DNA from: a virus
Direction: 5' to 3' (one strand)
DNA: 64,000 bases
IMG/VR virus record: IMGVR_UViG_3300042882_000881
Span: 49,951-113,950 of that record
Shown: piece by piece, positions 12,807 to 58,942 of the stretch
Position numbering within the stretch: position 1 is the stretch's first letter
How the letters are laid out: every line of letters starts with the position of its first letter
The notes under the pieces: generated by a model
Seen by the model: only the letters and a program-made list of their open reading frames with translations
What the model was told of the DNA's origin: nothing
Databases searched by the model: none
Translations under genes and position numbers: made by a program

Positions 12807-14447
12807 CTACAACTGCCACATCTTTTTAATAATCAAGCTAGTGCCTTCCTTGTTTTTAGACCCGGCAATCAGAACAGTGTTACCGGTATCTAACAGATGA
12901 TTATATTCCAAATGTTGCTCTGGAAAACATACAACACAGTCCATTCCTCCAGTAGAATCAGATATGCTGATGAATGACATTTCTTGTCCAGGATTTTTTC
13001 CCTTTTTTGTTTTTATAACATTTATATCTTGTAGTTCACAAGCTATAACTATTTCTTTTCTGTTAGTATTTTTAAATTCTTTACATGTTGTATTAGCATT
13101 AAGAATATCACAACCATCAATTTTAGAACATGTTATAGATGTTCCTAGCAAACTATGTTCATTATCTGCTATCCATTCTGGAGTATCAATTAAACTATAT
13201 GGCGGATGTTTCAAAATATTATATATGTCTTTAACAACTATTAGTCTTTTTGCCGATGCTATACAGGATTTTTTGCCCACTTCGCAAGTGAGAATAAACT
13301 CTAATACATCTTGTAAATTTTTAAATTCTGCAAGCTTAAGATTGGATATGATCCATGATCGTTCTCTGTCTGTGAATCCAGAAACAGCATTATATATTGC
13401 CATCATATAATTTCTGTTCATCTTTAGAAAGTCTAATGATCCAGAACATATCAAAGATTTGGCTGCTGTTGAGTTTAGTTTAATTAGTACATTAAAACAT
13501 AGCTCTATGAATGTCATATTACTAATGTCATAATTATTCTCTTTAATTATTACCATTAGTTTATCATACATTGAGTCTCCAAAACCTTTGATGTTAGTTA
13601 GTCCAAAATATACGATATTCTCTTTAAGGATAAAATTTTTATTTAACAGTCTGAGGTCTGGAACTTTAATAGATATGTCCATCTCAATAGCATTATTTAC
13701 CAATTCCCTAATTTCTTTCTGAGGATCTATTTTATCTTTAGCAAACATGAGATATGATGTAAAGAATATCTTAGGAAAGTGGGCCTTCGCATATGCTGAT
13801 AAATATGCATTAAACGCATAACTAACGGCATGACTTTTATTGAATGAATATCTTTGAGATTTTTCAATCCAATTAAATAGCTCGTTAGCCTCAGGCTCAT
13901 TTACTGTTTTTAGCTTTTTTGATCCTTCCAAAAACATTTGTTTAACTTTTGCCATTTCTTCTGGCTTCTTTTTACCAATAGCTTTTCTTAACATGTCCGC
14001 TTCTTTAAGATCGAACCCTGCTATTTTTTGTGCTATTTGCATAGCCTGTTCTTGGTAGATCATCTCCCCATATGTTTTATTCAGAATTGGCTCAAGAGAA
14101 CTATGGAAATAGTCTATAGACTCAAGATGATTCTTTTTATCAATATAATGATGAGTTACACTTTTACCTTCTCTAAAAGCTTCCAAACATCCTGGCCTCA
14201 TAATACTAACCAGAGCAGCAAGTTGTTCTATGTTCTCTGGTTTGAGTTTTTTGGCCAAGGATTGGCCTAGTCTAGACTCTAGCTGAAAACATCCCTTTGT
14301 ATTACCATCTGATATAATCTGCCAAGTTTTTTTACAGTCTAGATTAATATTTTCAATATTTAAATCGAAAACTATACTAGGTCGCTCCGGACCCACTTTT
14401 GTAATATCAAAAGAGCATCCGCAGTCCTTATATGTAAATTTTTTCAT
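12807..14447 (-). CDS. dnaE: DNA polymerase III alpha, C-terminal half (fingers, HhH, OB)
   Basis: GCFQLES, RPGCL, TYGEMIYQEQ, RKAIGKK, YSFNKSHAVSY, GLTNIKGFG; C-terminal OB fold. Confidence 0.9.
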   Translation of the reverse strand: MKKFTYKDCGCSFDITKVGPERPSIVFDLNIENINLDCKKTWQIISDGNTKGCFQLESRLGQSLAKKLKPENIEQLAALVSIMRPGCLEAFREGKSVTHHYIDKKNHLESIDYFHSSLEPILNKTYGEMIYQEQAMQIAQKIAGFDLKEADMLRKAIGKKKPEEMAKVKQMFLEGSKKLKTVNEPEANELFNWIEKSQRYSFNKSHAVSYAFNAYLSAYAKAHFPKIFFTSYLMFAKDKIDPQKEIRELVNNAIEMDISIKVPDLRLLNKNFILKENIVYFGLTNIKGFGDSMYDKLMVIIKENNYDISNMTFIELCFNVLIKLNSTAAKSLICSGSLDFLKMNRNYMMAIYNAVSGFTDRERSWIISNLKLAEFKNLQDVLEFILTCEVGKKSCIASAKRLIVVKDIYNILKHPPYSLIDTPEWIADNEHSLLGTSITCSKIDGCDILNANTTCKEFKNTNRKEIVIACELQDINVIKTKKGKNPGQEMSFISISDSTGGMDCVVCFPEQHLEYNHLLDTGNTVLIAGSKNKEGTSLIIKKMWQL

Positions 14448-15133
14448 ACAAATGAATCTTTAAACTTTATCTTCTCAAATAATTTTCTGTGTAGTTTTAG
14501 AAACCTGATCAAAATCTCAGCAGTATCTTTAACGTCCTTCAGAGCGTCGTGTGACCCCGCTGTTGATATACCAAGATAACCTCTGAGGCTATCCATTGTC
14601 AAGTTCTTTATTTCTTTAGATCCTTCAAACCAATAAAAAATAAGATTCATCACATCAATTGTATCTCTAGGATAAAATATAGATGATGTTCCATCATTGG
14701 TAACATTGTCATATTTTTTAGATAGTCTTTCTGTAATCTTAAGATCAAATCTAAAGATGTTATATCCTGCCGCTACTGGAGCACTAAACATACTCTTTCT
14801 AGTTGATCTAGAATGATACTTATCTAAATAATTGATAAATGTTTCCCACGATTTATTTTGTGCAGGATATGTCTTCCATTCTGATAAAATTTGTTCTGGC
14901 GAAGATCCTTTGACTTTTGCATGCCAGTCTAATATATCAGAATCAGTATATGGATTATCAACTATATCTTCTAATTTTTCTGGTTTTAAATTAATATTAA
15001 ACTCAGAATCTTTAATAATTTCTAACCTTGTTGGATCCACCATTATTGCGGCCAATTGAACTGGGCTACAAGAATACGGATCGCTTCCGTCCGTCTCCAT
15101 ATCGAAGACGCAAATTTTCCTATTATTTAACAT
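14444..15133 (-). CDS. dnaQ: DEDDh 3'-5' exonuclease (Pol III epsilon-like)
   Basis: FDMETDG, GYNIFRFD, HDALKD. Confidence 0.85.
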   Translation of the reverse strand: MLNNRKICVFDMETDGSDPYSCSPVQLAAIMVDPTRLEIIKDSEFNINLKPEKLEDIVDNPYTDSDILDWHAKVKGSSPEQILSEWKTYPAQNKSWETFINYLDKYHSRSTRKSMFSAPVAAGYNIFRFDLKITERLSKKYDNVTNDGTSSIFYPRDTIDVMNLIFYWFEGSKEIKNLTMDSLRGYLGISTAGSHDALKDVKDTAEILIRFLKLHRKLFEKIKFKDSFV

Positions 15134-15137
15134 TTAA

Positions 15138-15323
15138 TTAGTTTTGTGCTGGTGCCTTCACAACGTCTTGTAGTGGTGTGACAACAATCTTGCTGGCTTC
15201 ATCACCAACAATCTTGGCATTACATCCAACCTTGCAGCATGAGATGCGTTCTTCTTTAACCTTAACGTGCTTAATATCATTTAGTACGAATTCATCACCA
15301 ACGGCCAATTCAAAAAATTTCAT
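15138..15323 (-). CDS. Small Cys-containing hypothetical protein
   Basis: 61 aa with an AAGGAG RBS and its own promoter. Confidence 0.6.
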   Translation of the reverse strand: MKFFELAVGDEFVLNDIKHVKVKEERISCCKVGCNAKIVGDEASKIVVTPLQDVVKAPAQN

Positions 15324-15355
15324 ATTTAACTCCTTTGAAATTTGTAGTTATACTT

Positions 15356-15383
15356 ATTTTAGATACACTATAGAAAAAGTCAA
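15356..15383 (-). promoter_or_regulatory. Sigma70-type promoter between the two dnaE halves
   Basis: TTGACT-N16-TAAAAT. Confidence 0.6.
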
Positions 15384-17218
15384 TCAACCAGAAAATCTCT
15401 TATCTGCATTATTTTGTCTAATAATGCTACACCTAATATATCAAACTTTACAATTCCCAATGACTCTAGATCACCCATCTCTAATCCGGCTATATTTTGA
15501 CCAGTTTTTGTATCATGAATCATTGGACATAATTCGTTCAAACCTAATGCCGAAATAGCCACACCAGCAGCGTGTTTAGACTGATGGCATTTTGTCCCCT
15601 CAAGTCTAATAGCCTGCTCAAAACGCTTTGCCAGAGGCCCAGCAAGCTGATTGGAGTCATCCACATAGCACCATTGTTTTAGCTTTTCTGAATTATTTTC
15701 TAATGCCCATCGAATAATTGAGGCTTCGCCGTATTCTTCTTTCATTTCTTGAAGTTCATCTGCTATTTTTGCCTCATCTGGTATATTTTCTGTTATCCTA
15801 TTTGTTTCTTCGAAAGAAATATTACCATATACCCTTAATACTTCTTTTAGGGCACCTCTACCTTTAAGAGTATTAAATGTGATCATTTGGCTTACTTTAT
15901 CAGAACCATACTTTTGCTTAATATAATCTATAACGCTTTCTCTTTTGTCAATAGGAACGTCAACATCAATATCTGGCATGGATATTCTTTCTGATGTATT
16001 TCTTCCACTATTGTAAAATCTTTCAAAGATCAAATCATATTTAATAGGATCAATAGATGTTATTCCTAATAAGTATGATATTAAACATCCAGCCGCACTA
16101 CCTCTTCCTGGTCCTGGTAGCCAATTATTGGATTTTATATAGTCTATAATATCTCTTACTATTAAGAAATACCCAGCAAGTTTAGCCTCTTTTAGAACAG
16201 TCAACTCTTGATCAAGTCTAGACGAGTATTCTTGTCCAAGTTTTAAATCAAGCAGCTTTTGTTTTGTTATTTGAGTTAGATATTCATGTTCAGAAATTCC
16301 ATTAGGACAAGAGAATGGTGGAAGTCTAGGATTACTCAATATATCATATTCTTCTATCATATTTGAGATTTTAATAGTGTTAGATAATTCTACCTCTGAA
16401 TGTAATGCTTCCATCTCTTCATTACTTAGTATATGATAATTATCTGATTTAAAAAAGATATCCATACCAAATTTCTCATTGCTGATTAACTTTTGATTGA
16501 TATCACTAAAGGTTGTTTTTAGATTATTGCACAATAAAATCCGCTGATCAACAGCATCTTCCTTCTTGCAATAATGAGCATCGCATGTTGCAACAAGATT
16601 TATATTATTCCCAATTTTTCTATAAAATTCGGTCAAAGTTTTTTGTACAGGATTTATGTCTTGATCCATGAGTTGACACTCTAAAAATACGTTCTCAGAT
16701 CCAAAGATTTTATTTAATTCATTTATTTTATTCAATAGGAGTTCAACAGCATTATCTTTTAATGTCTCACCATCAAGCATATCGTCTGCGATCACAGATC
16801 CAGGGTGACCAGTTATACAGATAAGATTTGAGCAGTCAAATTCTGCCAAGTCTTTGAGAGATAGTCTTGGCTTATAATAAAAGAATTCTGAACTATTCGA
16901 TCTAGAAACCAATTCAATAAGAGTTTTCCATCCCTTATAGTTCTTGCAAAGAACCACCATATGGGACAGTTCGGCATTTTCTTTAGTTTTAACTAATGCG
17001 TCTTCTTTACAGATATAAAGTTCTACCCCAAGAATTGGCTTTATTCCAGCCTTTTTCATTTTCTGATAAAATTGGATTGCTCCACAAATATTACCATGAT
17101 CTGTTATGGCACAGGATTTAATTCCTAATTCTTTACATCTATCTGCAATTTGATCTGGCTTAGATAATCCATCCAATAAACTATAGTGACTATGAACGTG
17201 AAGTGGTATATATGGCAT
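15380..17218 (-). CDS. dnaE: DNA polymerase III alpha, N-terminal half (PHP plus palm)
   Basis: HVHSHYSLLDG, TDHG, GPGRGSAAG, MPDIDVD, KHAAGV, KFDILG. Confidence 0.92.
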   Translation of the reverse strand: MPYIPLHVHSHYSLLDGLSKPDQIADRCKELGIKSCAITDHGNICGAIQFYQKMKKAGIKPILGVELYICKEDALVKTKENAELSHMVVLCKNYKGWKTLIELVSRSNSSEFFYYKPRLSLKDLAEFDCSNLICITGHPGSVIADDMLDGETLKDNAVELLLNKINELNKIFGSENVFLECQLMDQDINPVQKTLTEFYRKIGNNINLVATCDAHYCKKEDAVDQRILLCNNLKTTFSDINQKLISNEKFGMDIFFKSDNYHILSNEEMEALHSEVELSNTIKISNMIEEYDILSNPRLPPFSCPNGISEHEYLTQITKQKLLDLKLGQEYSSRLDQELTVLKEAKLAGYFLIVRDIIDYIKSNNWLPGPGRGSAAGCLISYLLGITSIDPIKYDLIFERFYNSGRNTSERISMPDIDVDVPIDKRESVIDYIKQKYGSDKVSQMITFNTLKGRGALKEVLRVYGNISFEETNRITENIPDEAKIADELQEMKEEYGEASIIRWALENNSEKLKQWCYVDDSNQLAGPLAKRFEQAIRLEGTKCHQSKHAAGVAISALGLNELCPMIHDTKTGQNIAGLEMGDLESLGIVKFDILGVALLDKIMQIRDFLVD

Positions 17219-28690: not shown

Positions 28691-28822
28691 TTATTTCTTT
28701 AAAAGAGATATTATTCCTAGTATAATTGTTGAAAAAATTGAGACTTGTACGTTTGAATTATTTTGTATAATATTATATAATGTTATGAATAATGATATAA
28801 TGAATATTGTTTTATATATCAT
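28691..28822 (-). CDS. 43-aa membrane peptide (not in ORF track)
   Basis: MIYKTIFIISLFITLYNIIQNNSNVQVSIFSTIILGIISLLKK fills the gap between the deaminase and nrdJ. Confidence 0.4.
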   Translation of the reverse strand: MIYKTIFIISLFITLYNIIQNNSNVQVSIFSTIILGIISLLKK

Positions 28823-29279
28823 CTATACACCTTCTTAGCCACGACAGATCAGGAGTAACTCTGAATATTTTTATGCCACTCATTGAAACAAATGTGTCAA
28901 AAATCTGTTGTTGTTTTTCATCAAACAATTTTGTACCGTGACTATTAGCCATTACAACAGTTTTTATTCCTTCTTGCCACAATGCCATGATGCAATCATT
29001 ACAGCATTGACCAGTTACATAAGCTATTCCATTCTCTGGACGTATTGTACAATTGGATAACGCATTTCTTTCAGCATGAATCATCCAGTTATATTTTTCT
29101 GGACGATTTGTTGGTAGAGATTCATCATCTAGACCTCTTGGAAATCCATTGTATCCTAATCCCAGAATTCTATTGTGAGAGTCTGTAATGATACAACCAT
29201 GCTGAGTATGAACGTCGTGGCTTTTTTTAGACGCGACCACTGCGAGTCCTAAGAAATAATTTGTCCACGAAAGCTTCAT
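28812..29279 (-). CDS. dCMP deaminase
   Basis: GYNGFPRG, HAERNA, CCNDC. The ATG at 29279 is preferred over the TTG at 29312. Confidence 0.9.
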   Translation of the reverse strand: MKLSWTNYFLGLAVVASKKSHDVHTQHGCIITDSHNRILGLGYNGFPRGLDDESLPTNRPEKYNWMIHAERNALSNCTIRPENGIAYVTGQCCNDCIMALWQEGIKTVVMANSHGTKLFDEKQQQIFDTFVSMSGIKIFRVTPDLSWLRRCIDDI

Positions 29280-29284
29280 GTTGT

Positions 29285-29312
29285 ATGATAACGTGATCAG
29301 GAAAAAAGTCAA
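29285..29312 (-). promoter_or_regulatory. Sigma70-type promoter, probably giving a leaderless mRNA
   Basis: TTGACT-N16-TATCAT ending 5 nt before the ATG. Confidence 0.6.
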
Positions 29313-29327: not shown

Positions 29328-31307
29328 TTAAAAACTAAAATCTTTACAGCTATTAATCTCTTTAACATCTTCTAATATAGACTTTATTAGATCTTGAACT
29401 TTCTTTTTGATATCACCAAATAATTCCGATGCTTCATCTGCTTCGTTTTTGATATTTAGACTGGGTAATACTATTGATATTAAAAATAAGAATTCAATAA
29501 AACCAAATCGTTCTTCTTGCATATATATACTTGGATATCCCAAGCAATTATTTGGCATTGCGTATTCACCACAATTTACAGGACCATTTTTTTTGTCATC
29601 TTTTGGATTTGGATCATTTCCCCAGTTTTGGTCGGTTCTATTTGGCCAAGTATATTCGCAAAATGAACCATCTACACCTCCTATTCTTTTGAGTGGTCTA
29701 CCAAGATCTTGTGATGTTCGTATTAATCTATCTAATGGAGACAATCCACACGAAGGTAGTCTTGTTGCATTCAAAACTTTTACCAAATCACCCATTAAAC
29801 TAGCTATATCACCATTATCACAACTTTTTGTATTACCATTTTCATCTATATAAGTAACTACATTTTGACCCCTATTCCATGCTATACTTGGCTTAAATTC
29901 GTATTGTATAGCTAATTGACCATCTGTTTTTGTTATTCCTATTATTTTTGTGACCCCACTACACTGAGTATAAGGATCATTTTGATTTTTAATTAAATTT
30001 TGAGCATCAGCTATTGTAAAATCATCATCTATTGATCGTCCCATATTTTCAAGATCATTCGCAGTGAAATATTGTGTACTTATTACTCTGCAATTAGGAT
30101 CTAATGTTTCCATTATTGGTTTAATACAAGCATTTGCTTCGGCCACCTCTTTCCAATAGACTCCATTTGGTGGAGCAAAAGTCTCAGAGTGTCTTTTTCC
30201 GCACAGATTTCTTGATCCTTGACAAGCCTCCAGTGCTCTTCCAGACAGGCCTGCACAATTATGTCTTTCATAACCTCCAAGGCTATTTCCTATTGTTAAA
30301 GTTAAATATTGTCTTAAAGTATAATTAGTGTTACCTCCCGCTCCCGCTAGTAGCCCTAGAGCACCTTTTAAATTACTTAACCATAGTCCAGAATTTAGAT
30401 TAGCTTTATTAAATTCTTCGCTTAAGGCGCCGTTTATAAAGTCGTTTACCATTGTGGTATATGCTCCGACTATTCGTCCGGGCAAACTCTTTAAAAGGGC
30501 TGCTTTTGCTTCTGGGCCATCATATTTTTCAAGTAACTTAAGATATATCTTCTTAGGAGCAGGGTCAGAAATCTTTCCTATATATGAGTCTCCTTGTTCT
30601 TGCACCCAGATATCTCCACGAGTAACAGTTTCGTAAACAGCAACGAAAATTTGACCTTTGCATGTTGAACTTAGAGAAGGAAGATCCTCGAATTTTATTA
30701 TGAATTTAGAATCACAAACTGTTCCTATTTGTATTTCAGCATCTTCTGTTAATTCGAAAGTTGTATACGTTACCTCATTATGAAGAGTTTCATCACGTAC
30801 CTCTACCCAATTTTTACTTATTGTATAAATTCCATTCATACAATTATTAGGAACGGTCCATCCAGCAAAAGGACTAATGCAGCTATTCTCATATGCAGGA
30901 CAATCACTAAACCAATCAGCATCTGCCCAGGCTCCTATGTTATCACATAATGTGACCGGAGATCCTGTAGCATCTCCACCAAAATTCCCCTCACGAGTAC
31001 CACATAATTTATTACGCATATAATCTGTAATAGCTTTCTCAACGAGGAAGCAATTATTAAGACCATTATACCCTTTTGTTCCAAGTGTTGCTTGAATTAC
31101 AGCTTTAACTTTAGCTTTTCCTGATTTTATATTATCTTCTGTGCAAACATTTCTATTTCCACAAAAAGCATTTAGTTTACTAGCAATTAAAGATACTCCT
31201 TGTGGGCCAGTAATAGCCTCTATTATTTGTGGATGAATTACACCTGTGATATGATTTATGATAGCGTCTACGCAAGCTTTTAGAGGACCAGAACAATCTG
31301 TTGCCAT
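29328..31307 (-). CDS. Large Cys-rich hypothetical protein
   Basis: 659 aa with an AAGGA RBS, dispersed Cys and a hydrophobic stretch near the C-terminus. Confidence 0.6.
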   Translation of the reverse strand: MATDCSGPLKACVDAIINHITGVIHPQIIEAITGPQGVSLIASKLNAFCGNRNVCTEDNIKSGKAKVKAVIQATLGTKGYNGLNNCFLVEKAITDYMRNKLCGTREGNFGGDATGSPVTLCDNIGAWADADWFSDCPAYENSCISPFAGWTVPNNCMNGIYTISKNWVEVRDETLHNEVTYTTFELTEDAEIQIGTVCDSKFIIKFEDLPSLSSTCKGQIFVAVYETVTRGDIWVQEQGDSYIGKISDPAPKKIYLKLLEKYDGPEAKAALLKSLPGRIVGAYTTMVNDFINGALSEEFNKANLNSGLWLSNLKGALGLLAGAGGNTNYTLRQYLTLTIGNSLGGYERHNCAGLSGRALEACQGSRNLCGKRHSETFAPPNGVYWKEVAEANACIKPIMETLDPNCRVISTQYFTANDLENMGRSIDDDFTIADAQNLIKNQNDPYTQCSGVTKIIGITKTDGQLAIQYEFKPSIAWNRGQNVVTYIDENGNTKSCDNGDIASLMGDLVKVLNATRLPSCGLSPLDRLIRTSQDLGRPLKRIGGVDGSFCEYTWPNRTDQNWGNDPNPKDDKKNGPVNCGEYAMPNNCLGYPSIYMQEERFGFIEFLFLISIVLPSLNIKNEADEASELFGDIKKKVQDLIKSILEDVKEINSCKDFSF

Positions 31308-31330
31308 TTTTAATTCCTTTTATTAATTTA

Positions 31331-32212
31331 TTAATTTGGTTTTGATATATTTATTGTTTGACTTGGTTTATCATAAGTTCCATTTTTTGTAATAACAGTT
31401 AATGGCTTATTATTTGAATCAACAGACAGATTAAAATCACTATTTAGAATATTAGTAATGCCTACCTTGTCAAGAGAAAAACCAAATAGATATTGCTTAG
31501 CAGTAAGAGATAGTGCTGGTAACTGATTAACAAAGTCCCAAACATAAGGAGCTAATCCATTATTTGGCATTAAATTTGAATTAAATTTTAATAAGCTTTC
31601 AATAAGAAATACTTCTTCTGTTGATAGTTCTAAATCATTTTTATAATTGTTCTTAATTTTAAAGTTATAATTTGAATCTTTTGTGGTTATTGAACTTAGT
31701 AAGTTTAATGATAGATCATCTACTATCCAAGATTTAACTCTGTTAGTATCAATATTTAATTTATTTCTGATAAATCCACCAGAAGTTTGAAGAGTAAAAT
31801 CAACAAATACATTAAGTCCATCACTATACATAGTATCTGATAGCGTATTATAAAGTTGATCTAATAAATCTCTGTCTGATGCTGATTCAAATGATAATTC
31901 TGGAAATACTGAACTATGATAATTATTACCTTGCTCTAATGTTATATTATATTTTGATTCTAAAAAATCTAACCATTGATCACCAGTAATTACTGATGTT
32001 GATGATGGAGCCAAAATATTTAATAGATCATAGTAGTACGATCCGTTGTTGTTTCTTACAGCAACATTAGATTTAACATAAATATCTGCATTAATGACAA
32101 ATTTATATGTGGGGTCAGTTTTCAAAACTCTATGCTTTAAGATCATGCATGGAATTCTGGTTTTGTGCCATTCGCCAGATGTGAGTTTTATATTTGTATT
32201 TTTAGTATTCAT
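31331..32212 (-). CDS. Hypothetical protein
   Basis: 293-aa ORF in operon. Confidence 0.55.
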   Translation of the reverse strand: MNTKNTNIKLTSGEWHKTRIPCMILKHRVLKTDPTYKFVINADIYVKSNVAVRNNNGSYYYDLLNILAPSSTSVITGDQWLDFLESKYNITLEQGNNYHSSVFPELSFESASDRDLLDQLYNTLSDTMYSDGLNVFVDFTLQTSGGFIRNKLNIDTNRVKSWIVDDLSLNLLSSITTKDSNYNFKIKNNYKNDLELSTEEVFLIESLLKFNSNLMPNNGLAPYVWDFVNQLPALSLTAKQYLFGFSLDKVGITNILNSDFNLSVDSNNKPLTVITKNGTYDKPSQTINISKPN

Positions 32213-32451
32213 AGTCTAGACTCTACAACCTTTGGTGCATTATTTAATAATTTGTATGACACATAACCTTTTACTAATGATCTATTATGAGTATAAATTG
32301 GGTCTAAATTAATAGTTCCCTTATTATATGTATTTTGATTAGAAGTATAAGAAGAAGCCACAGCACAACAATTTAAACCATCAGATGCTGACTGCATTCT
32401 GGAAGTTCCTCTTGTTGGTGGTCTATCGGGTGATGGACTATAAGAAGACAT
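32209..32451 (-). CDS. Small hypothetical protein
   Basis: 80 aa, downstream of a GGTGTAT motif. Confidence 0.5.
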   Translation of the reverse strand: MSSYSPSPDRPPTRGTSRMQSASDGLNCCAVASSYTSNQNTYNKGTINLDPIYTHNRSLVKGYVSYKLLNNAPKVVESRL

Positions 32452-32484: not shown

Positions 32485-32499
32485 TGTATAATACACCGG
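32485..32499 (-). promoter_or_regulatory. Putative phage late-promoter motif
   Basis: CCGGTGTATTATA in an intergenic gap; the motif recurs in other gaps. Confidence 0.5.
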
Positions 32500-32504
32500 C
32501 ATAT

Positions 32505-32750
32505 TTATTTTTGTAGTTTATTGTACACTACTAAGGCTAGTACTGATCCAATAATACCCATAAAAATACCAGCAGGAGAAACTGCATCATATGTTCCTAA
32601 TAGGTACAATATTGAACCCCCAACATATGATCCAGCAACACCAAGAGCTATTGTTTTTACAAATCCGAAATTTTCTTCACCAGGAACTAGAGCTTTGGCT
32701 ATAGCACCAGTAAATATACCATAAACACACCATACTAAAAGATTAAACAT
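32505..32750 (-). CDS. GlsB/YeaQ/YmgE (transglycosylase-associated) membrane protein
   Basis: G...GAIAKALVPG...TIALGVAGSYVGG...GIIGSVL; three TM segments. Confidence 0.85.
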   Translation of the reverse strand: MFNLLVWCVYGIFTGAIAKALVPGEENFGFVKTIALGVAGSYVGGSILYLLGTYDAVSPAGIFMGIIGSVLALVVYNKLQK

Positions 32751-33135
32751 TCGCGGCCTCCACTAGGGTTGAAACTTCCTCGTCCGTGAGATTCTCTCCT
32801 ATATCAAGCAATGCTTCAGTTAATTTAATACCATATTTATTAAATTCATCTTGAGTTAATTCTTTTCTGATTACTCTTTTAATTCTCATACGAGTAAACC
32901 AGCCTCTTTTTTTGCTGAAAGATCTTATACTTTCACCATAAGTGGCACACTTATCTTGAGCAGTCATATTCTCTGTTTTATTCTTATTACATTCTTGTAA
33001 AACTCTGATAACAGTAAGAATAATACTTATAACCATTAAGATAGCTATAATACTGCCAAATTTTTCGTCCTCATTAATATTAACTCTTTTCAATACTTTT
33101 TTAGCTAATTCTTTTAGTTCTTCATTTTCTGACAT
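32743..33135 (-). CDS. Membrane protein
   Basis: TM segment FGSIIAILMVISIILTVIRVL. Confidence 0.6.
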   Translation of the reverse strand: MSENEELKELAKKVLKRVNINEDEKFGSIIAILMVISIILTVIRVLQECNKNKTENMTAQDKCATYGESIRSFSKKRGWFTRMRIKRVIRKELTQDEFNKYGIKLTEALLDIGENLTDEEVSTLVEAANV

Positions 33136-33136
33136 A

Positions 33137-33481
33137 TTATCTCCTAATAATTTTGGAGTTTGATGAACATGAATTATCTTTACATTGTGGTTGTTGTGGC
33201 TGAACTTTTAATACTGTTGGAGGAAGAGGACTAAGTAGTTGTTGTTCTGGTTCGCAGTATCCACAATCTACTTTTTTAATACCATCACCACTAATATACC
33301 ACCCTTTACCCTCACATACCGGACAATCTTTTCTTTTATACTTTTTAACACTAACTACTGTTCTACTTTTTAGAATACCACCAGCTAATGTTACAGCCGC
33401 TTTTGTTGATCCATCATATTGTGATGAACCAAATATTAAAGAGGCTAATAATAATATTGACAAACTATTGTTTAGTGTCAT
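33137..33481 (-). CDS. Signal-anchored protein with a CxxCxGxG Zn finger
   Basis: Hydrophobic N-terminus; CPVCEGKG...CGYC. Confidence 0.6.
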   Translation of the reverse strand: MTLNNSLSILLLASLIFGSSQYDGSTKAAVTLAGGILKSRTVVSVKKYKRKDCPVCEGKGWYISGDGIKKVDCGYCEPEQQLLSPLPPTVLKVQPQQPQCKDNSCSSNSKIIRR

Positions 33482-33635
33482 CTTTGATAAGATTAGGAAA
33501 TAATCTTTTCCTTTTTTTAGGTTTAGTATCTATATTATCTACACTATTTGGTGCAAATATTTTTAAAATTCCAACAATAAAATTAAGAATCATAGAAATT
33601 AATCTATTTAGTACAATCTGATCTAGAATTTTCAT
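33465..33635 (-). CDS. 56-aa amphipathic/basic peptide (not in ORF track)
   Basis: MKILDQIVLNRLISMILNFIVGILKIFAP...KPKKRKRLFP; ATGA overlap with the peptidase stop. Confidence 0.55.
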   Translation of the reverse strand: MKILDQIVLNRLISMILNFIVGILKIFAPNSVDNIDTKPKKRKRLFPNLIKDDTKQ

Positions 33636-34558
33636 AAATAATCATCAAATCCATAAGTAGGAAGTTTTTGCACAGGAAAACCGTCAAAATTACTAAAAGC
33701 ATAACTACCATTTGCTGCTAACATTCCAGCAGCAACTTCAGCACGAATAAGAAATGATCCATCAGGAATTGGGCCCCATTCTGGATGACCACCATCATTC
33801 CATTTGCCCCAACTATTTTGTACTAAGAATAATGGTTCACTACCAGTATCATCACACGCTATCCAGGCCATACAATGGGCCCAGTTTCCGCTAGTGTTAG
33901 AGATGCCCTTTTTATCTCTTTTATTGGAGAATCCATAATTTGAACATACTGCTAAACCATAACCATTAGCAAGAGCATCACGAGCTTCTTCTATTGTTTG
34001 TATCAAACTAACAGTTTTAATTTGATGATCATTAGCAAGATCAATAACAGGATCTGGTAAGCCTCGTCCTCCCCAACCAGCACCAAGGTTACCATTATAT
34101 TTAGTAAAGTCAGCAACACCTTTGTAGTTTTGGCGTAACACTATACCACCATTCTTGCTAACGAACTCTGCTGCTCTAGAGCAACTCATTCCTTGTCCAC
34201 CATGTCCGCGAGCACCATAAATAGCCTCAGTTGCCCCTCTGGCCATCCATGCTTCTCTTTCATTATGAACATCTATTTCTACTGCTCTGCTAACATCACA
34301 AGCGTTTCGTGTTCCGTGGGACACACAATCTCCAGTGGTTTGTCTTTCATTATATGGATTACTATCAAATTTTAACACACTCTTGTATGGTGTTGATAGT
34401 TTACCCTTACCACTATTCTTAATTCTTCTGCTAGCATCTCCAAATAAAGGATACTTGCTATTTTCCATTAGATGATCAAAAACGTGTTGTTCCCACAAAC
34501 AACCACTAAATCCTTTGCGATAGTTATTATATAATTCTTCAGGAGATAGTCTAGCCAT
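33632..34558 (-). CDS. Papain-like (C1) cysteine peptidase
   Basis: Q-TTGD-C-VSH, W-A-H-C-M and QNSWG give the Gln/Cys/His/Asn catalytic set. Confidence 0.8.
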   Translation of the reverse strand: MARLSPEELYNNYRKGFSGCLWEQHVFDHLMENSKYPLFGDASRRIKNSGKGKLSTPYKSVLKFDSNPYNERQTTGDCVSHGTRNACDVSRAVEIDVHNEREAWMARGATEAIYGARGHGGQGMSCSRAAEFVSKNGGIVLRQNYKGVADFTKYNGNLGAGWGGRGLPDPVIDLANDHQIKTVSLIQTIEEARDALANGYGLAVCSNYGFSNKRDKKGISNTSGNWAHCMAWIACDDTGSEPLFLVQNSWGKWNDGGHPEWGPIPDGSFLIRAEVAAGMLAANGSYAFSNFDGFPVQKLPTYGFDDYL

Positions 34559-35043
34559 TATTTTGCCCCCTGATCACAAGCCCACGCTAAAGCCCTAAAT
34601 CCATCTACAGCCTTAGCTCTTAAATCTTTGTTTAAAGGAACATTATCATCTCCAATTGATGATACAATAACTGCTTTTGCTGCTGAAGCCAACTCTGGAT
34701 ACTTGCCTTTGATATTCATCTTTAGCATAAGTCCGCTTAGACTATTAGCTTGACGAATATCATCAGTATTCTTAACTATTTGATCTTCTCCATCAAGTTC
34801 AACAAGAGATGCCATATCCATATATAATGAGGCTAATCTTTTTGATTCAGACGATGAAGCCCCACCACTTTTTAATGCTTTTGTTACTAGATCACATTCA
34901 TCTAATAGTTCGACATTAGTTGGCTTTGATATATTTAGATCAGAAGGACTGTTATTCTTAAATAGATTAGTTAGATCAGGCTTTAAAAGACCTATTGCTA
35001 ATAATAATCCACCAAGAACTAATAATACTTTTTTGTTATTCAT
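34558..35043 (-). CDS. Membrane-anchored helical protein
   Basis: N-terminal TM KKVLLVLGGLLLAIGLL. Confidence 0.6.
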   Translation of the reverse strand: MNNKKVLLVLGGLLLAIGLLKPDLTNLFKNNSPSDLNISKPTNVELLDECDLVTKALKSGGASSSESKRLASLYMDMASLVELDGEDQIVKNTDDIRQANSLSGLMLKMNIKGKYPELASAAKAVIVSSIGDDNVPLNKDLRAKAVDGFRALAWACDQGAK

Positions 35044-35411
35044 AGAACTACTCCATCTTTACCACAACCATTTGGACTTAGATACGGAAACATTTGATCA
35101 GCAACCTTAACGGCTTCTGAGCATTTGTTTTGAACAGCCAAGTCTCTGGTCTTTTTCCATGATGTTACTAATTCAAAAAACAAATCATCGCCAGCTACTG
35201 GTTCTGCTGTTACGACTGATGGAACAACAGCAGAAACTACTGAGGATGTTTTATTAGTTACATTATTAAATAGCTTAAGAACAGCGCTCTTTAATGGATC
35301 TAGCTTTTCTTTAAATAAAACATAAACAATTATGCCAGCACCAGCATATAGTAAAAGATCTGTTGGGCCTAATCTTGTTGAAAATTGCTCAAAACTTTCT
35401 GCGTAATTCAT
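35040..35411 (-). CDS. Membrane protein
   Basis: TM LLLYAGAGIIVYVLF. Confidence 0.6.
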   Translation of the reverse strand: MNYAESFEQFSTRLGPTDLLLYAGAGIIVYVLFKEKLDPLKSAVLKLFNNVTNKTSSVVSAVVPSVVTAEPVAGDDLFFELVTSWKKTRDLAVQNKCSEAVKVADQMFPYLSPNGCGKDGVVL

Positions 35412-35791
35412 GATGTCTCCTCTTTCTTTTTGAAAATACCTACACTTTTGAATATTGTTACAGTAGCATCTATTGATGATCCAACCATAGTCATTAATAT
35501 GCTCTTAACGTACCTATGTATAATAGGCTCAAAAACATTTGGAACAAATGGAATATCTATTACTACGAACACAGCATCATAAAAACCGTTAATTGAATTT
35601 AGGGCTAATTGTTTCTTATCTTTTCCAGCTAAATCAGTTGCTATATTTTCTATACGCTGTACAACAATTGCTGTTGTTAGTTGTAATATTTTCCAAGCCT
35701 CACTTAGGGCTATTTTTTGGACGTTTTGTATTGACTCTTTTGTTTGACTTGCTAGTTTTTCTACTTCTTGATTTAGTAACTGCTGGCTCAT
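35408..35791 (-). CDS. Holin-associated-like helical protein
   Basis: G.DKK..AL motif seen in small phage membrane-associated proteins; start MSQQ at 35791. Confidence 0.45.
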   Translation of the reverse strand: MSQQLLNQEVEKLASQTKESIQNVQKIALSEAWKILQLTTAIVVQRIENIATDLAGKDKKQLALNSINGFYDAVFVVIDIPFVPNVFEPIIHRYVKSILMTMVGSSIDATVTIFKSVGIFKKKEETS

Positions 35792-36029
35792 TTTCAACCT
35801 TTTGTTCTGTAAAAGCTTTTTTAACTGTTGATCTACCTTTGATATATTTGTATAAGATAAATAACTGTCCACCAATTAATATACACGATTCAACACCATG
35901 ACTAACATCTCTTATAAGATCTTCTTTTTGACCATTTTCCCCTATTATTCCCACCAAATACAGACCGCTGAATATAAAACTTACAAATGTAAACCAAAAT
36001 TCACTAGTTCTATACCCTGGTTTTATCAT
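35700..36029 (-). CDS. Holin-like protein
   Basis: KPGYRTSEFW N-terminus, two TM segments and a very basic tail; ATG overlaps the upstream TGA. Confidence 0.55.
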   Translation of the reverse strand: MIKPGYRTSEFWFTFVSFIFSGLYLVGIIGENGQKEDLIRDVSHGVESCILIGGQLFILYKYIKGRSTVKKAFTEQKVENEPAVTKSRSRKTSKSNKRVNTKRPKNSPK

Positions 36030-38164
36030 GGACAACCTCCGGCTGTTGGAGCCTCATTTATATTGTCAGGACAGCAGTACCAGCCTTCGAAAGTGAGTTT
36101 TCCAGACGGACACTCTGTTGGCTCAGCCCCCCATGAAACTTTAAGAACATTTCCATTGGCAGCATCTCTCCAAAGTCTACCAGGAACTAGAGGGTCTATA
36201 CTAGGAACGGTGGTAAAATCGATATCATTAATATTAAAACTATATGGTTCCCATAATTCAGTAGTAAAATTATATCTTAATAATTGTTTATCCGTGACTC
36301 CAGTAACAGATACATTATGTAGTTCTTCTAATTCGTACCCATTTTGAACTCTAACTTCAACGACGCCTGCATTTTGATGTGTTCTTACTATAACGCCCAT
36401 AGCAACCATATGATTTGGTGCTGAAGGCTTTGTGGTTGTAAATCCTCCAGCAACACTGGGACTTAACCATAGTGTTGTACCATTAACATTTCCTGTTGGT
36501 GCGGTAGGATTAAATTGATCTGTATTTATCCCGGTTAAGGCTCCAAATACAATAACTTTTCCTGTGCTCATATGATTAATTGCTTCTGCTGTTATTCCAT
36601 AAGTTTTACTACTGGTTGATTCTGTATTAGCTTGTGCTAAGCTAATTGTGGGAGTATCTCCTTGTCCACCGTTAACATATATAGCAGTAAATTTAGGAAT
36701 AATACTTCCAGTTTGATTAAAAACAGTAGTAATAACAGATGCTGACTCTTGAACAGCGGTTGGGCCATCTAGCGTAAAGGCCCCATTCACCTCTGTAACA
36801 GTTATATTGCTTCCCTGAATAATATCATTAACAGGATAAGGAATATTTGGTATATCTCTACCATCAAGATTTAGTCTATATCCAGAACCAACATTGGTCC
36901 AATAGGTTGTGTCTGTAACGGGCAAGCTCTCATTATCAAAATTAGCCTTATATAAAGTACCAGCATGATAAACAACATCATTGGCTAAATACCTAGTACC
37001 ATCAGCAAGAGTATGATTAGCTGTCCACTGAAGAGCAGTATTAACAGACGCTGTGCTTTGCGTTGTATTATTTGGAAATGTTAAGGTGCCGTCTACACCA
37101 AAAGTCCAGTGATTATTATTTGAGTCGGTACCAATAACAACGTTCCCACCATCTTTTTCGATCTTAACGTACTGATCATCATCTCCTAAATAAATATCAA
37201 CATTTTCTGGATCTCCTGCCACAAGATGCACATGACTATGTTCTGAATTTGATATATCGTTATTCGTCACAGTAACATATTGACCAATGGGCATAGCATT
37301 TTCTTCAAAGTTATAATATAATGCTGGATCATTTTCTGTCTCTATATTAGTTGATCTTGTTCCATCAACACTTGTTATTGTTAAAGTAAATTCAGTAATC
37401 TGACTATCGACTGGTATAGTCCAAGTAATAGTTTCTGTGTCTGGACCAGATGTGCTTACAAAAGTTAATTTACCGGTTAATGGTCGTCCCAATGATTGTT
37501 CTGTTACTCCACTGCCAGTAATAGTATAGTTTACTGTTCCAAAATAAGCCCAAGTTTGAAGAGTTACAGAAATTGTAATAGGACTACCATAGACTATAAA
37601 ATCACTAGAGTTTATACTCCAAATAGCGGCAGTTGGTCGAATGACTAAACTTTGTCCAGCGGCTGCTGTTGGAGGCATTAAAGATATTGTATTATTTGTT
37701 TCGCTTAGTATGCTACCATTGGGTAATGTTAGTTCACCATCTGTATTAAAAGTCCACTGATATGTGTATGTGTCGCTATTGGATTCTATTCTAACTTCAC
37801 TTGCGGCCATAATAACAACATCATCACCAAGTGCTTCAAGCCATAGATCGTCTGCGGCAGAGATGCCAATGTCAGCATCTTGTTCACCATCAGTTCTAGT
37901 AGTCTTAATTTGAAAATCATCATCCACTGCACCCCATAGAGTTTTAGTTCCTTCTATTACTGGGAATGAAGTCATACCATCGCTGCCAAGTACCACTTGA
38001 TATTCACCATTGACCAATCGATCATTAATAATGGATTTCAGTTCAGATAGTGATATCTTTTTAGTAATCCCACCACTCGAAGGACTGTCCATAAAAATGA
38101 AAACATCATCATTACTTAAGTTGCCACTACCTTCTGGTAATTCATTAATTCTAATTATAGCCAT
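36026..38164 (-). CDS. Tail fibre / virion appendage protein
   Basis: MAIIRINELP N-terminus; WTF..DG.LT.P repeats; CBM-like RY..NDVV...G.LYKA...YW; ELEELHNV...LLRYN motif. Confidence 0.65.
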   Translation of the reverse strand: MAIIRINELPEGSGNLSNDDVFIFMDSPSSGGITKKISLSELKSIINDRLVNGEYQVVLGSDGMTSFPVIEGTKTLWGAVDDDFQIKTTRTDGEQDADIGISAADDLWLEALGDDVVIMAASEVRIESNSDTYTYQWTFNTDGELTLPNGSILSETNNTISLMPPTAAAGQSLVIRPTAAIWSINSSDFIVYGSPITISVTLQTWAYFGTVNYTITGSGVTEQSLGRPLTGKLTFVSTSGPDTETITWTIPVDSQITEFTLTITSVDGTRSTNIETENDPALYYNFEENAMPIGQYVTVTNNDISNSEHSHVHLVAGDPENVDIYLGDDDQYVKIEKDGGNVVIGTDSNNNHWTFGVDGTLTFPNNTTQSTASVNTALQWTANHTLADGTRYLANDVVYHAGTLYKANFDNESLPVTDTTYWTNVGSGYRLNLDGRDIPNIPYPVNDIIQGSNITVTEVNGAFTLDGPTAVQESASVITTVFNQTGSIIPKFTAIYVNGGQGDTPTISLAQANTESTSSKTYGITAEAINHMSTGKVIVFGALTGINTDQFNPTAPTGNVNGTTLWLSPSVAGGFTTTKPSAPNHMVAMGVIVRTHQNAGVVEVRVQNGYELEELHNVSVTGVTDKQLLRYNFTTELWEPYSFNINDIDFTTVPSIDPLVPGRLWRDAANGNVLKVSWGAEPTECPSGKLTFEGWYCCPDNINEAPTAGGCP

Positions 38165-38166
38165 AA

Positions 38167-38403
38167 TTATACTCCGAGAACATCTTCACCATAGAATCCG
38201 CCGTCGGTATCTCCACGGCCACCATAATAGTAGCTTGGATCATCAAATCTGTTATCATATTTAGATGATACTGATCCAATGTTTGGTCTATTGCTAGACG
38301 ATGATAAATTTAATGAATATTTACCAGTTTTGGAGCAAGTTAATACTATGCTACCATTGTGAATACTTTTAGACGAAATAGAAAGTTGAACATCATTAGC
38401 CAT
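38167..38403 (-). CDS. Small hypothetical protein
   Basis: AAGGTG RBS; downstream of a GGTGTAAT motif. Confidence 0.55.
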   Translation of the reverse strand: MANDVQLSISSKSIHNGSIVLTCSKTGKYSLNLSSSSNRPNIGSVSSKYDNRFDDPSYYYGGRGDTDGGFYGEDVLGV

Positions 38404-38429: not shown

Positions 38430-38444
38430 TTTATATTACACCAG
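38430..38444 (-). promoter_or_regulatory. Putative phage late-promoter motif
   Basis: CTGGTGTAATATAAA in an intergenic gap. Confidence 0.45.
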
Positions 38445-38448
38445 AAAG

Positions 38449-38766
38449 CTATTTTGATTCTATTCTATATTCTATGGCTTCAAGAGTTTTTGTGAGTGTA
38501 GCTATCTGAATTTTTAACTCATTCATAACATCAGTATTTCTTTGTAAAGCCTGAGAAAATGCTGCTTGAATTTCCTTATTAGAGTTCAATCTCTCCATAA
38601 TAAATTGACGATCTTGAAGATATGGCGATTTGGTTTCTATAAGATCGCACACTTCTGCTTTAGTTGCCATATTTTTGCCTACGGCAACCCAAAAACCTAT
38701 CATGGTAACAATAATGCCAACAGAAGTTGTGGCAATATGTTGCCAAAAATTAGTTAATTCTGCCAT
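38449..38766 (-). CDS. TM plus coiled-coil protein (XhlA/holin-like architecture)
   Basis: N-terminal TM followed by heptad repeats. Confidence 0.5.
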   Translation of the reverse strand: MAELTNFWQHIATTSVGIIVTMIGFWVAVGKNMATKAEVCDLIETKSPYLQDRQFIMERLNSNKEIQAAFSQALQRNTDVMNELKIQIATLTKTLEAIEYRIESK

Positions 38767-39344: not shown

Positions 39345-39359
39345 CTTGTTATACACCCA
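39345..39359 (-). promoter_or_regulatory. Putative phage late-promoter motif
   Basis: GGGTGTATAAC in an intergenic gap. Confidence 0.45.
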
Positions 39360-39362
39360 ATT

Positions 39363-40025
39363 TTATTTTTTGTTATTATAATTGAATAAGACGATATCTT
39401 TAATTATATCTATAGAGCCGCTTCTTACGGCGTAAAACTTTTGGCCAAATATCATTTCAAAATGATGATTATTCCAAAAATTAGCAGATAATATAACTTT
39501 TAGATTATCAAAATGACCTTTTAAAAATTGAGAGGCTATGATATAATCGGCTAAATTATCTATTCTATATCCTGATCCTGGAACAATGGTTGTAATATCT
39601 GCTGCTATAAGGATCTCGCACATCTTCTTTAAATAATTATGATCAAATATTCTATATTCTAATATATATCTTATTTTTGACGGATCAATATGTTCTTTTT
39701 GACACTTGATATCTTCTCTAATCTTATCATATTTTCGATTGGTAAGATAAGATGCTGGTAATACGATATCTATCATATCCGCACCATTTTTTAATGCCCA
39801 AGATGTTAATGATGCTCTTGACTTTATATCAGAAAATCCTAAAGGATAATCAATTACGCATGAAATTTTTTTATTCTCGGCCAATAAGCCCTTAGTTAAT
39901 TTAAGAAAATATTGGGGAATTACTATAGTATCAATTTCATTAATTTTATTAATTTCGTCTTTAATCAAATTAGACAGTTCGTTATCTGTTAAATCGCATG
40001 ATGTATTAACATATTCTAATTGCAT
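39363..40025 (-). CDS. DeoC (deoxyribose-phosphate aldolase)-like protein lacking catalytic lysines
   Basis: CVIDYPLG, GADMIDIV and RYILE are present; KTSTG is replaced by IVPGSG. Confidence 0.7.
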   Translation of the reverse strand: MQLEYVNTSCDLTDNELSNLIKDEINKINEIDTIVIPQYFLKLTKGLLAENKKISCVIDYPLGFSDIKSRASLTSWALKNGADMIDIVLPASYLTNRKYDKIREDIKCQKEHIDPSKIRYILEYRIFDHNYLKKMCEILIAADITTIVPGSGYRIDNLADYIIASQFLKGHFDNLKVILSANFWNNHHFEMIFGQKFYAVRSGSIDIIKDIVLFNYNNKK

Positions 40026-40687
40026 TTGAGACTTTCTATTGTAGGATATTTCTTTGATCCTAAAATACCATCCGCAAAACCATAATACACCGCTTCATCA
40101 GCATCTAATAACCAATCGCACTTATTTGAAATTTGACTCACAAGATGTTTTTTAATTATATGTGGACTATTCTTCCATTTTTTTTCTTTTGCTATTGGAC
40201 TCTTTAAACATCTATCTACAAATATATTCACCATTTTATCAGTTTCTTTTTCGCTCCACTGAACGCTACTAGCAGCAGCCTTGCTATGCTCATTATCAAA
40301 ACTGATACTTCCATAATGAATTAATAATGTTGCATTTGGCATCATTATTCTTTGATGTCCAGCTTGAAATAATACTCCGCTAGCAGATTGTATTTTTCCA
40401 TATCCAAGAATTGTGGTTCTACATTTGGATAGTTTTAAGGTATCATACATAGATAAGCAGTCTTCCCAATCTCCACCAGGAATATGCATGTGTATTAATA
40501 TCGGCTCTTGAGAATTAAATGATAAGAATCTTATATTTTTTTCTAAAATTACAGATGCTCTATAATCAACTCCACTATCTTCTTCTCCATCAAAATATGA
40601 ATGTAAAAATATTTCCCTTTGTTCAGGTATAATACTATTATTATGTAAGCAATTTAATTGATCATGTATTGATAGCTGTTGATTCAT
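40016..40687 (-). CDS. clpP: ClpP-family protease
   Basis: PGG, SAS (Ser), R...PNA..LIH (His), DWLLDADEAVYYGFAD (Asp). Confidence 0.85.
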   Translation of the reverse strand: MNQQLSIHDQLNCLHNNSIIPEQREIFLHSYFDGEEDSGVDYRASVILEKNIRFLSFNSQEPILIHMHIPGGDWEDCLSMYDTLKLSKCRTTILGYGKIQSASGVLFQAGHQRIMMPNATLLIHYGSISFDNEHSKAAASSVQWSEKETDKMVNIFVDRCLKSPIAKEKKWKNSPHIIKKHLVSQISNKCDWLLDADEAVYYGFADGILGSKKYPTIESLKCN

Positions 40688-51712: not shown

Positions 51713-51932
51713 TAGTAATATCCTTTTTTAAGTTAACAATATTGTTGTCATTATCAATATAATACACCGGCGTCTTATCTATGATATCAGATGATTCAAA
51801 CCATCTTTGAGTACCATCGACAAGGTTGGTGCATAATCTTGAGCCATTTTTTTTAAAATCTGTGGTCAAAATAAACTTATCTTCTTTATAAGAGAATGTT
51901 TCTCCATTAGCTAATTCTTCAATATAATTCAT
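51687..51932 (-). CDS. Small hypothetical protein
   Basis: ORF in operon. Confidence 0.5.
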   Translation of the reverse strand: MNYIEELANGETFSYKEDKFILTTDFKKNGSRLCTNLVDGTQRWFESSDIIDKTPVYYIDNDNNIVNLKKDITNEKNINIS

Positions 51933-58926: not shown

Positions 58927-58942
58927 TTTTATCATACACCAA
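58927..58942 (-). promoter_or_regulatory. Putative phage late-promoter motif
   Basis: TTGGTGTATGATAAA in an intergenic gap. Confidence 0.45.

Follow-up and report, generated by a model that had tools for sequence, protein, structure and literature searches.

Gene content and conservation of the module

The DNA analyzed here (the window) is a stretch of 64,000 nucleotides (nt) from a virus, positions 49,951 to 113,950 of the IMG/VR record IMGVR_UViG_3300042882_000881. At window positions 32505-36029 it carries nine open reading frames (ORFs), g1 to g9, all on the minus strand, which form a module around a cysteine peptidase and are considered below as a candidate lysis or envelope-breaching cassette. 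With its 64 kb, the window forms the end of that record, a single viral contig of 113,950 bp (GC content 0.33) that is linear according to IMG/VR and about 82% complete according to CheckV.

The first gene, g1 (35700-36029), encodes a protein with two hydrophobic segments and a very basic C-terminal tail, and g2 (35408-35791) encodes a helical protein of 127 amino acids (aa). The g3 protein (35040-35411) has an N-terminal transmembrane (TM) anchor and two conserved Cys in its C-terminal domain, while g4 (34558-35043) combines an N-terminal TM or signal anchor with a five-helix bundle. The stop codon of g4 overlaps the start of g5 (33632-34558), the 308-aa papain-fold (C1-like) cysteine peptidase, the N-terminus of which is not hydrophobic. 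It is followed by g6 (33465-33635), a hydrophobic or amphipathic peptide of 56 aa with a hydrophobic segment at residues 6-24 and a basic tail, and by g7 (33137-33481), which has a hydrophobic N-terminus, the motif CPVCEGKGW...CGYC, and a tail rich in Pro, Gln, and Cys. The block ends with g8 (32743-33135), which has one TM segment (residues 28-46) and a helical C-terminal domain, and g9 (32505-32750), a protein of the GlsB/YeaQ/YmgE family (PF04226). Neighboring genes overlap by 1-17 nt or are separated by 1-nt gaps, and g1 and g2 overlap by 92 nt. The starts of g1 and g2 were fixed at 36029 and 35791, respectively, by comparison with relatives, in which g1 begins with MIKPGY or MVKPGY.

Scanning IMG/VR with the peptidase yielded 160 related stretches, and gene order was counted in the best 80 loci. 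An earlier reading, made from the sequence alone (the sequence-only reading), had described nine tightly coupled genes; these were confirmed on the minus strand, and their order was kept in 75-80 of the 80 loci, with protein identities of 45-86%, except for the small g6 (40-48 of 80). Because the order is kept across 80 loci, the ORFs are regarded as real genes. The g4 gene occurred in all 80 loci, followed by g3, g7, g1, and g8 in 79, 78, 76, and 75 loci, respectively, and by g6 in 48 according to blastp. Median protein identity across loci amounted to 86% for the peptidase, 73% for g9 (75 loci), and 47-59% for the other module proteins. The nearby ribonucleotide reductase reached a median of 88%, so that the peptidase is constrained like a core enzyme. 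On contig L004 (3084-3782), g2 and g3 were read as one 232-aa ORF, which is either a natural fusion or an assembly error.

The carriers of the module are a large group of uncultured freshwater phages, with contigs of up to 238 kb. The peptidase family comprised at least 2,274 homologous proteins in a 90%-clustered database, forming 1,427 clusters at 50% identity (E up to 0.001). A tblastn search with g5 and two structural ORFs gave no match in 50,697 phage records, which indicates that there is no cultured relative among them. The polymerase of this phage shares at most 36% identity with those of cultured phages, and its terminase, portal, and capsid proteins were also missed by Pfam, reflecting strong divergence. 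No description of the module, of the peptidase family, or of planctomycete phage lysis was found in the papers searched, and a paper on a jumbo-phage lineage (PMC12619734) deals with other phages.

The peptidase and its partner proteins

Conservation, profile searches, and a structural model together assign g5 to the papain fold as a divergent, C1-like cysteine peptidase. In 46 homologs with identities down to 32%, Q73, C78, H228, and W250 were invariant, and D77, S80, N248, and S249 were nearly so, with N248 conserved in at least 90%. The residues follow the Gln-Cys-His-Asn order and include an NSWG motif, which bears out the signal-less C1 peptidase with a complete Q/C/H/N set that had been proposed from the sequence. 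Phmmer with g5 alone found nothing significant among the sequences of the PDB. The profile of the 46-homolog alignment matched caricain (1.5e-5) and many cathepsins among the same sequences, as well as xylellain (3OIS) over positions 60-281. The AlphaFold2 model of g5 had a predicted local distance difference test score (pLDDT) of 94.1, and papain-family structures were its sole matches. Foldseek matched it to xylellain with E = 2.6e-9, and VIA aligned 232 residues with 3OIS at Z 21.0 and a root-mean-square deviation of 3.0, followed by procathepsins and propapain at Z 17-19. In the VIA alignments, mature enzymes superpose from about residue 48 onward and zymogens from residue 5, via their propeptide segment, and the N-terminus of g5 therefore looks propeptide-like in the model.

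Several homologs carry LAGLIDADG inteins exactly between D77 and C78, with the catalytic Cys as the +1 residue, between H228 and C229, or after N248. These insertions were found in P0121, P0122, P0124, P0125, P0128, P0131, P0135, P0148, and L102 (6992-9733), some of which contain two inteins. Since inteins at catalytic motifs are typical of the most constrained sites, their positions argue that the catalytic center of g5 is functional.

The 150 best representatives of the family were surveyed for fusions and anchors. More than 150 aa precede the catalytic Cys in 12 of them, and 11 of these 12 start with a hydrophobic or TM segment. None of the 73 stand-alone representatives has a signal peptide or TM segment, and g5 likewise has neither. 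In the six extensions inspected, a Gly/Ala-rich TM segment leads via an acidic or Pro-rich linker to a helical domain, the end of which carries ...AWAC/AWG..., as in g4. P0152, P0157, P0160, P0168, P0181, and L102 carry this g4-like domain in front of the peptidase on the same chain, so that in other phages g4 and g5 form one polypeptide. Three proteins, P0157, P0160, and the 913-aa protein of L102, carry the g7 motif CxRCNxxGW...C..C as a C-terminal fusion, and in P0181 and P0212 it is replaced by a thioredoxin-like CxxC. A Tat-like (twin-arginine-type) signal, RRHFL, was present in P0126.

In most of the inspected fused forms the flanking charges favor an N-in, C-out topology. A homolog of g7 in prophages of Planctomycetota is a lipoprotein (lipobox LVAC|G, VAG|C), with a TM and helical protein encoded behind it. 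From the anchors and topology of the fusions, the hydrophobic N-terminus of g7, and this lipoprotein form, the most likely site of action of the peptidase, in concert with g4 and g7, is beyond the cytoplasmic membrane. As g5 of this clade carries no signal, a hole-forming protein would be needed for it to reach such a site. The release by a holin that had been suggested earlier is therefore compatible with the signal-less g5 of the clade, and it does not extend to the homologs with long extensions, 11 of 12 of which are membrane-anchored, with one Tat-like signal.

The candidate for hole formation is g1, which in addition to its hydrophobic segments and basic tail (net charge +12) has a short basic N-terminus and an acidic loop, all kept in 76 loci. 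By these features g1 is class-II-holin-like, as far as the earlier description of a holin-like gene went, and it matched no Pfam or PHROG family. The g2 protein is a sub-threshold relative of Holin_LLH (Phage_holin_6_1, PF09682), with E = 0.0013 and 19.5 bits under a cut-off of 24.9. Sub-threshold Holin_LLH matches also occurred in 9 of 20 related phage genomes, the best of which (22.7 bits, E = 1.4e-5) was confirmed to lie inside a g2 homolog. Searches of the ESM Atlas with g4 and g2 returned unnamed viral and bacterial clusters only, apart from one weak lead from g2 to PF09682 (score 0.81).

The C-terminal domain of g3 has the conserved motif ...SWKQTRDLA..C.EAVKV.DQMFP.LSP..C. The five-helix bundle of g4 was modeled by AlphaFold2 with a pLDDT of 85.8 and had no significant match in the PDB. 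A lysozyme-like or other informative fold was considered for g4 and dropped, as structure comparison gave generic helical matches only (Foldseek best E 0.62, VIA best Z 6.8). Complex prediction for g5 with residues 38-161 of g4 scored 0.02, a value that weighs neither for nor against binding. Exported or anchored, g7 is a candidate thiol-redox partner or outer-membrane-directed component, and g9 is a true member of the GlsB/YeaQ family (E = 1.9e-8, 34.8 bits against a cut-off of 25.3). Searches of the nine module proteins against PHROGs gave nothing except unnamed families for g7.

Wall hydrolases, genomic setting, and host

Neither a muralytic Pfam nor a muralytic PHROG family was found in the g1-g9 block, in keeping with the earlier remark that no lysozyme, amidase, M15, M23, or spanin lipobox is recognizable there. 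All other ORFs of this genome, minus ten replication enzymes and glycosyltransferases identified by PHROGs, were scanned with Pfam, and the resulting lists (13, 18, 6, and 1 families) contained no muralytic domain. Because this genome is incomplete, 19 relatives were included in a six-frame search covering 20 genomes of 114-238 kb, 17 of which are at least 90% complete and seven of which have terminal repeats. Phage_lysozyme (PF00959), Amidase_2 (PF01510), SLT (PF01464), Peptidase_M15_4 (PF13539), GH19 (PF00182), GH108 (PF05838), M23 (PF01551), NlpC/P60 (PF00877), and CHAP (PF05257) were absent from all 20 genomes. Three more families, GH25 (PF01183), Amidase_3 (PF01520), and M15_3 (PF08291), were absent from five complete genomes of the set. 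The search for canonical endolysins that had been called for is thus strong evidence, although not proof, that the clade has no ordinary endolysin.

A promoter-like motif, GGTGTA, lies on the minus strand at 38437-38442, 39 nt upstream of the gene gm1, and no other copy in this genome lies closer upstream of the module. It occurs in 21 copies in the genome, nine of which are located 29-66 nt upstream of start codons, including those of three plus-strand structural genes, gm1 (38442), and g10 (32497). Sites in the window are 38437-38442, 39352-39357, 32492-32497, 58935-58940, and 51763-51768, and those on the plus strand of the genome are 18691, 26982, and 31379. In the 80 relatives, GGTGTA was counted 322 times on the coding strand versus 56 times on the other strand. 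Ahead of g1 it was found at a distance of 26-61 nt in 39 of 76 loci; the same spacing held for g2 in 26 of 77 loci and for g6 in 12 of 48. The motif is probably the late promoter element of the clade. Because it is strand-biased and is found ahead of structural genes and, in relatives, also ahead of g1, g2, and g6, the module is likely to be expressed late. Scans for sigma-70 promoters and terminators gave nothing above shuffled controls.

Upstream of g1 lies a 712-aa fiber-like protein (36026-38164, minus strand), a variable insert outside the conserved module with partial matches in 21-22 of the 80 loci. A stretch of 169 aa in it shares 69% identity with an ORF of the structural block (genome 21133-22737, plus strand) and looks like an exchanged receptor-binding-type segment. 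The placement of the module directly after the tail fiber, earlier taken as the usual place for a lysis cassette, holds in this genome; since the fiber-like gene is variable in relatives, the argument from this position does not extend to the clade. In many relatives, the small conserved protein gm1 (38167-38403, minus strand) directly precedes g1, with no fiber-like gene in between. Further upstream, gm2 (38449-38766, minus strand) encodes 105 aa with an N-terminal TM segment (residues 11-29) and a coiled coil. It has a median identity of 73% in 50 loci, and a protein built in a similar way comes after the peptidase in Planctomycetota prophages; gm2 is a possible accessory membrane protein of the module.

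Downstream of g9, relatives have a homolog of the gene at 28812-29312, followed by the reductase gene. In this genome, three genes at 29328-32451 (minus strand), preceded by a GGTGTA motif and without counterpart in the 80 related loci, separate the module from the reductase gene as a strain-specific insert. One of them encodes a 659-aa protein with 24 Cys and a C-terminal hydrophobic segment.

The genome is divided into a plus-strand block (genome 1-53.4 kb) of packaging and tail genes and a long minus-strand block. The former includes a 3,071-aa tape measure protein (PF10145), terminase and tail PHROGs, and two Mtd_N proteins. The latter encodes a split DnaE-type polymerase, DnaB, primase, a UvsX/RecA-like protein, ribonucleotide reductase, PhoH, SSB, dCMP deaminase, glycosyltransferases, sigma factors, and rIIB, as well as a ClpP-like head maturation protease and a trypsin-like protein. 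The ClpP-like gene (40016-40687, minus strand) is encoded on the non-structural strand, some 4 kb ahead of the module, and was found in 33 related loci at 58% identity. The trypsin-family protein (58960-59715, minus strand; PF00089, E = 2e-18) is a second protease. The polymerase is split into ORFs of 612 and 546 aa (12807-17218, minus strand) with ORFs of 229 and 61 aa between them, and no intein was seen there.

A pattern scan of one genome per species (185,579 species) yielded 17 loci with the peptidase. Eight of these have a low GC content and replication genes in common with this phage and are related phage contigs that were binned into assorted metagenome-assembled genomes (MAGs). The other nine have a host-like GC content (0.58-0.67), and all occur in MAGs of Planctomycetota, some on contigs of 0.4-5.5 Mb. 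Three of these Planctomycetota genomes carry two peptidase copies each, and about 5 of 301 sampled Planctomycetota genomes have a strong peptidase match. In several Planctomycetota loci the peptidase is again closely preceded by a g4-like gene, and often a g2-like gene comes before that. In prophage L110, the g2-like gene comes first, then the g4-like gene, the peptidase, a secreted WCPYC thioredoxin-like protein, and two small ORFs, after which the genes for the terminase large subunit and the portal follow. Lysis cassettes of the lambda type classically occupy such a place, a short distance before the terminase gene. In L097 and L100 the set lies between helicase/primase genes and a ParB-methylase gene, and in L109 it comes after an integrase gene and a capsid gene with its own fused protease (phrog_4523). 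Five Planctomycetota genomes that host peptidase-bearing prophages (G020, G021, G024, G214, and G294, with loci L101 and L103-L113; 5.5-8.5 Mb) had no match to PF00959 or PF01464, and PF01510 matches occurred in them only far from the prophages.

A second line of evidence on the host comes from a 688-aa phage protein (53879-55945, minus strand), in which residues 240-480 form a PATR-repeat and dockerin-like module. This module matched the C-termini of cellular proteins with PF12951 repeats at 41-53% identity (E 1e-24 to 1e-33), and all organism-named matches were from Planctomycetes. The matching cellular proteins have a high-GC-type composition, unlike the phage proteome, so that the GC contents of the phage and a planctomycete host would differ widely. 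A comparably large difference exists between phiKZ and Pseudomonas. Searching 401 sampled Planctomycetota genomes with the surface module gave no match, which is uninformative, as the search had no positive control. The link to planctomycetes drawn in the sequence-only reading gains from these two independent lines, the peptidase on host-like high-GC contigs only in Planctomycetota and the matches of the surface module, and a planctomycete host appears plausible, with the odds close to even. A host among the Flavobacteriales, suggested by GC and by two MAGs with related contigs, was set aside as weak, as similar contigs were binned into MAGs of SAR202, Dehalococcoidia, and Promethearchaeota.

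Function of the module and comparison with known systems

The module is best explained, with a probability of roughly 55%, as a late cassette for lysis or envelope breaching. On this view, g1 would give a zymogen-like papain-type peptidase access to the periplasm, where it would be joined by g4 and g7. The g5 protein would be made in the cytoplasm in a zymogen-like form without an export signal. At the end of infection, g1, possibly aided by g2, g6, g8, and g9, would open the cytoplasmic membrane. The peptidase would then reach the periplasm and work with the membrane-anchored, periplasm-facing g4, while the CxxC protein g7 would keep or set its catalytic thiol in this oxidizing compartment. 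Its target would be a load-bearing component of the envelope, either the peptide cross-links of peptidoglycan or envelope proteins. The model builds on observed features, from the gene content and its conservation to the fold, the catalytic residues, the domain fusions, the export signals of relatives, and the missing common wall-hydrolase families; we infer its timing, topology, and substrate, as well as the roles of the small proteins.

Several points weigh against this explanation. In this clade the block sits in the strand of replication and nucleotide metabolism, next to the reductase gene and away from the head and tail genes. The match of g5 to Peptidase_C1 (PF00112) reached 16.5 bits (E = 0.009), below the cut-off of 20.7, and that of the homolog P0122 reached 17.0 bits. 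To our knowledge, no C1-family enzyme cuts peptidoglycan; classically, these enzymes act as proteases on L-peptides. No lipobox was found in g1-g9 or their clade homologs, and no lipobox spanin pair was found in the window. Positive controls matched for all wall-hydrolase families except GH19 (PF00182) and GH108 (PF05838), and, given the divergence of the clade, a muralytic enzyme of an unrecognized family could be hidden among its many uncharacterized ORFs.

An unlikely alternative is that the module remodels or guards the envelope, with the anchored peptidase modifying surface or periplasmic proteins of the host, e.g., to destroy receptors, block superinfection, or prepare membranes for assembly, while another, unrecognized agent causes lysis. 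The evidence for action outside the cytoplasm fits this equally well, the block lies among non-structural genes and contains far more membrane proteins than a minimal lysis cassette requires, and rIIB, with a function in membrane integrity or lysis timing, is encoded elsewhere. However, no alternative lytic enzyme was found in the 17 near-complete genomes, g1 has holin-like features, the module of L110 occupies the classical lysis position shortly upstream of the terminase gene, and the module has its promoter-like motif in common with the structural genes.

It is improbable to a greater degree that g5 is a cytoplasmic protease of host takeover, comparable to the bleomycin-hydrolase-type C1B enzymes, and that its membrane neighbors are functionally unrelated. 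The missing signal peptide and TM segment in g5 and the 73 stand-alone representatives would be expected of such an enzyme, but the g4-like and g7-like fusions link it functionally to its neighbors, the genes are translationally coupled, and the g4-g5 pair recurs in several Planctomycetota prophages. Least credible is a virion or prohead maturation protease or an enzyme that processes structural proteins, a possibility already weighed in the sequence-only reading: the very high, core-gene-like conservation, the propeptide-like N-terminus, and the proximity to the capsid gene in L109 are in line with it, but the separate ClpP-like protein matches head-maturation-protease PHROGs, the capsid gene of L109 already carries a fused protease, and the membrane anchors, Tat-like signal, and lipoprotein partner of relatives point outside the cytoplasm, where heads are not assembled.

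Two premises attached to the lysis cassette when it was first proposed have to be revised. The first, that planctomycete envelopes contain little peptidoglycan, is dated, as peptidoglycan was demonstrated in Planctomycetes in 2015. The second was that a protease takes the place of an endolysin. Because the papain-fold enzymes CHAP, NlpC/P60, and PeiW/PeiP are genuinely wall-lytic (PMC10318531), the peptidase of the cassette may by analogy itself be the endolysin. A lysis without any peptidoglycan hydrolase appears doubtful; here, the tethered papain-type protease and a periplasmic thiol-disulfide protein (CxxC zinc-ribbon or thioredoxin-like) would dismantle a disulfide-cross-linked protein layer in the envelope of Planctomycetes, and phages would be released by proteolysis and disulfide chemistry instead of murein cleavage.

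Compared with the papain family (MEROPS C1, clan CA, PF00112), of which xylellain of Xylella fastidiosa (PDB 3OIS) is the nearest structure, g5 has the same two-lobed fold, the Gln-Cys-His-Asn residues, and the NSWG motif, and its residues 5-48 superpose on the propeptide segment in zymogens of papain and cathepsins B, K, and L. It differs by an identity of only 10-17%, its sub-gathering score, and the lack of a secretion signal, and, as a phage protein, it invariably comes with a membrane-anchored helical partner encoded next to it. As in the lambda S-R-Rz/Rz1-type cassette, a two-TM protein with a basic tail heads a coupled block with one signal-less hydrolase, and in L110 this block lies shortly upstream of the terminase gene. 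Unlike in the lambda-type cassette, the hydrolase falls outside all 12 wall-hydrolase families tested, the module has six or more further membrane or exported proteins, and the clade has no lipobox spanin.

In signal-anchor-release (SAR) endolysins such as P1 Lyz, a disulfide cages the catalytic Cys until thiol exchange frees it. At the level of sequence, the fused homologs resemble them in the Gly/Ala-rich N-terminal TM tether and in the combination of a catalytic thiol with CxxC partners, whereas in this phage anchor and enzyme are divided between two proteins, g4 and g5, and g5 has no N-terminal TM segment. The clan CA phage lysins, i.e., CHAP, NlpC/P60, Amidase_5, and PeiW/PeiP of methanogen viruses, likewise use a papain-like core as a viral lytic enzyme, and with the pseudomurein endoisopeptidases PeiW and PeiP a cysteine peptidase serves as the sole lysin for an unusual wall (PMC10318531). 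In contrast, g5 has the larger, two-lobed C1-type fold and belongs to another family, as PF05257 and PF00877 were not found in any of the 20 genomes. Read as a lysis cassette, the module varies the holin-lysin theme in a new way, in that its enzyme is of the C1 type and comes with dedicated partners.

With inteins at each of its three catalytic motifs, the peptidase family is a neat case of intein homing to active sites. The textbook view of phage lysis rests on few muralytic families, and a very large clade of phages appears to be without the common ones. If the cassette reading is true, the module would add a new enzyme class and an accessory logic of anchor protein and thiol partner to phage lysis, and the peptidase would be a marker gene for finding such phages and prophages. 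It would also offer an experimental handle on the cohesion of the host envelope, possibly that of Planctomycetes, the wall of which has been debated for decades.

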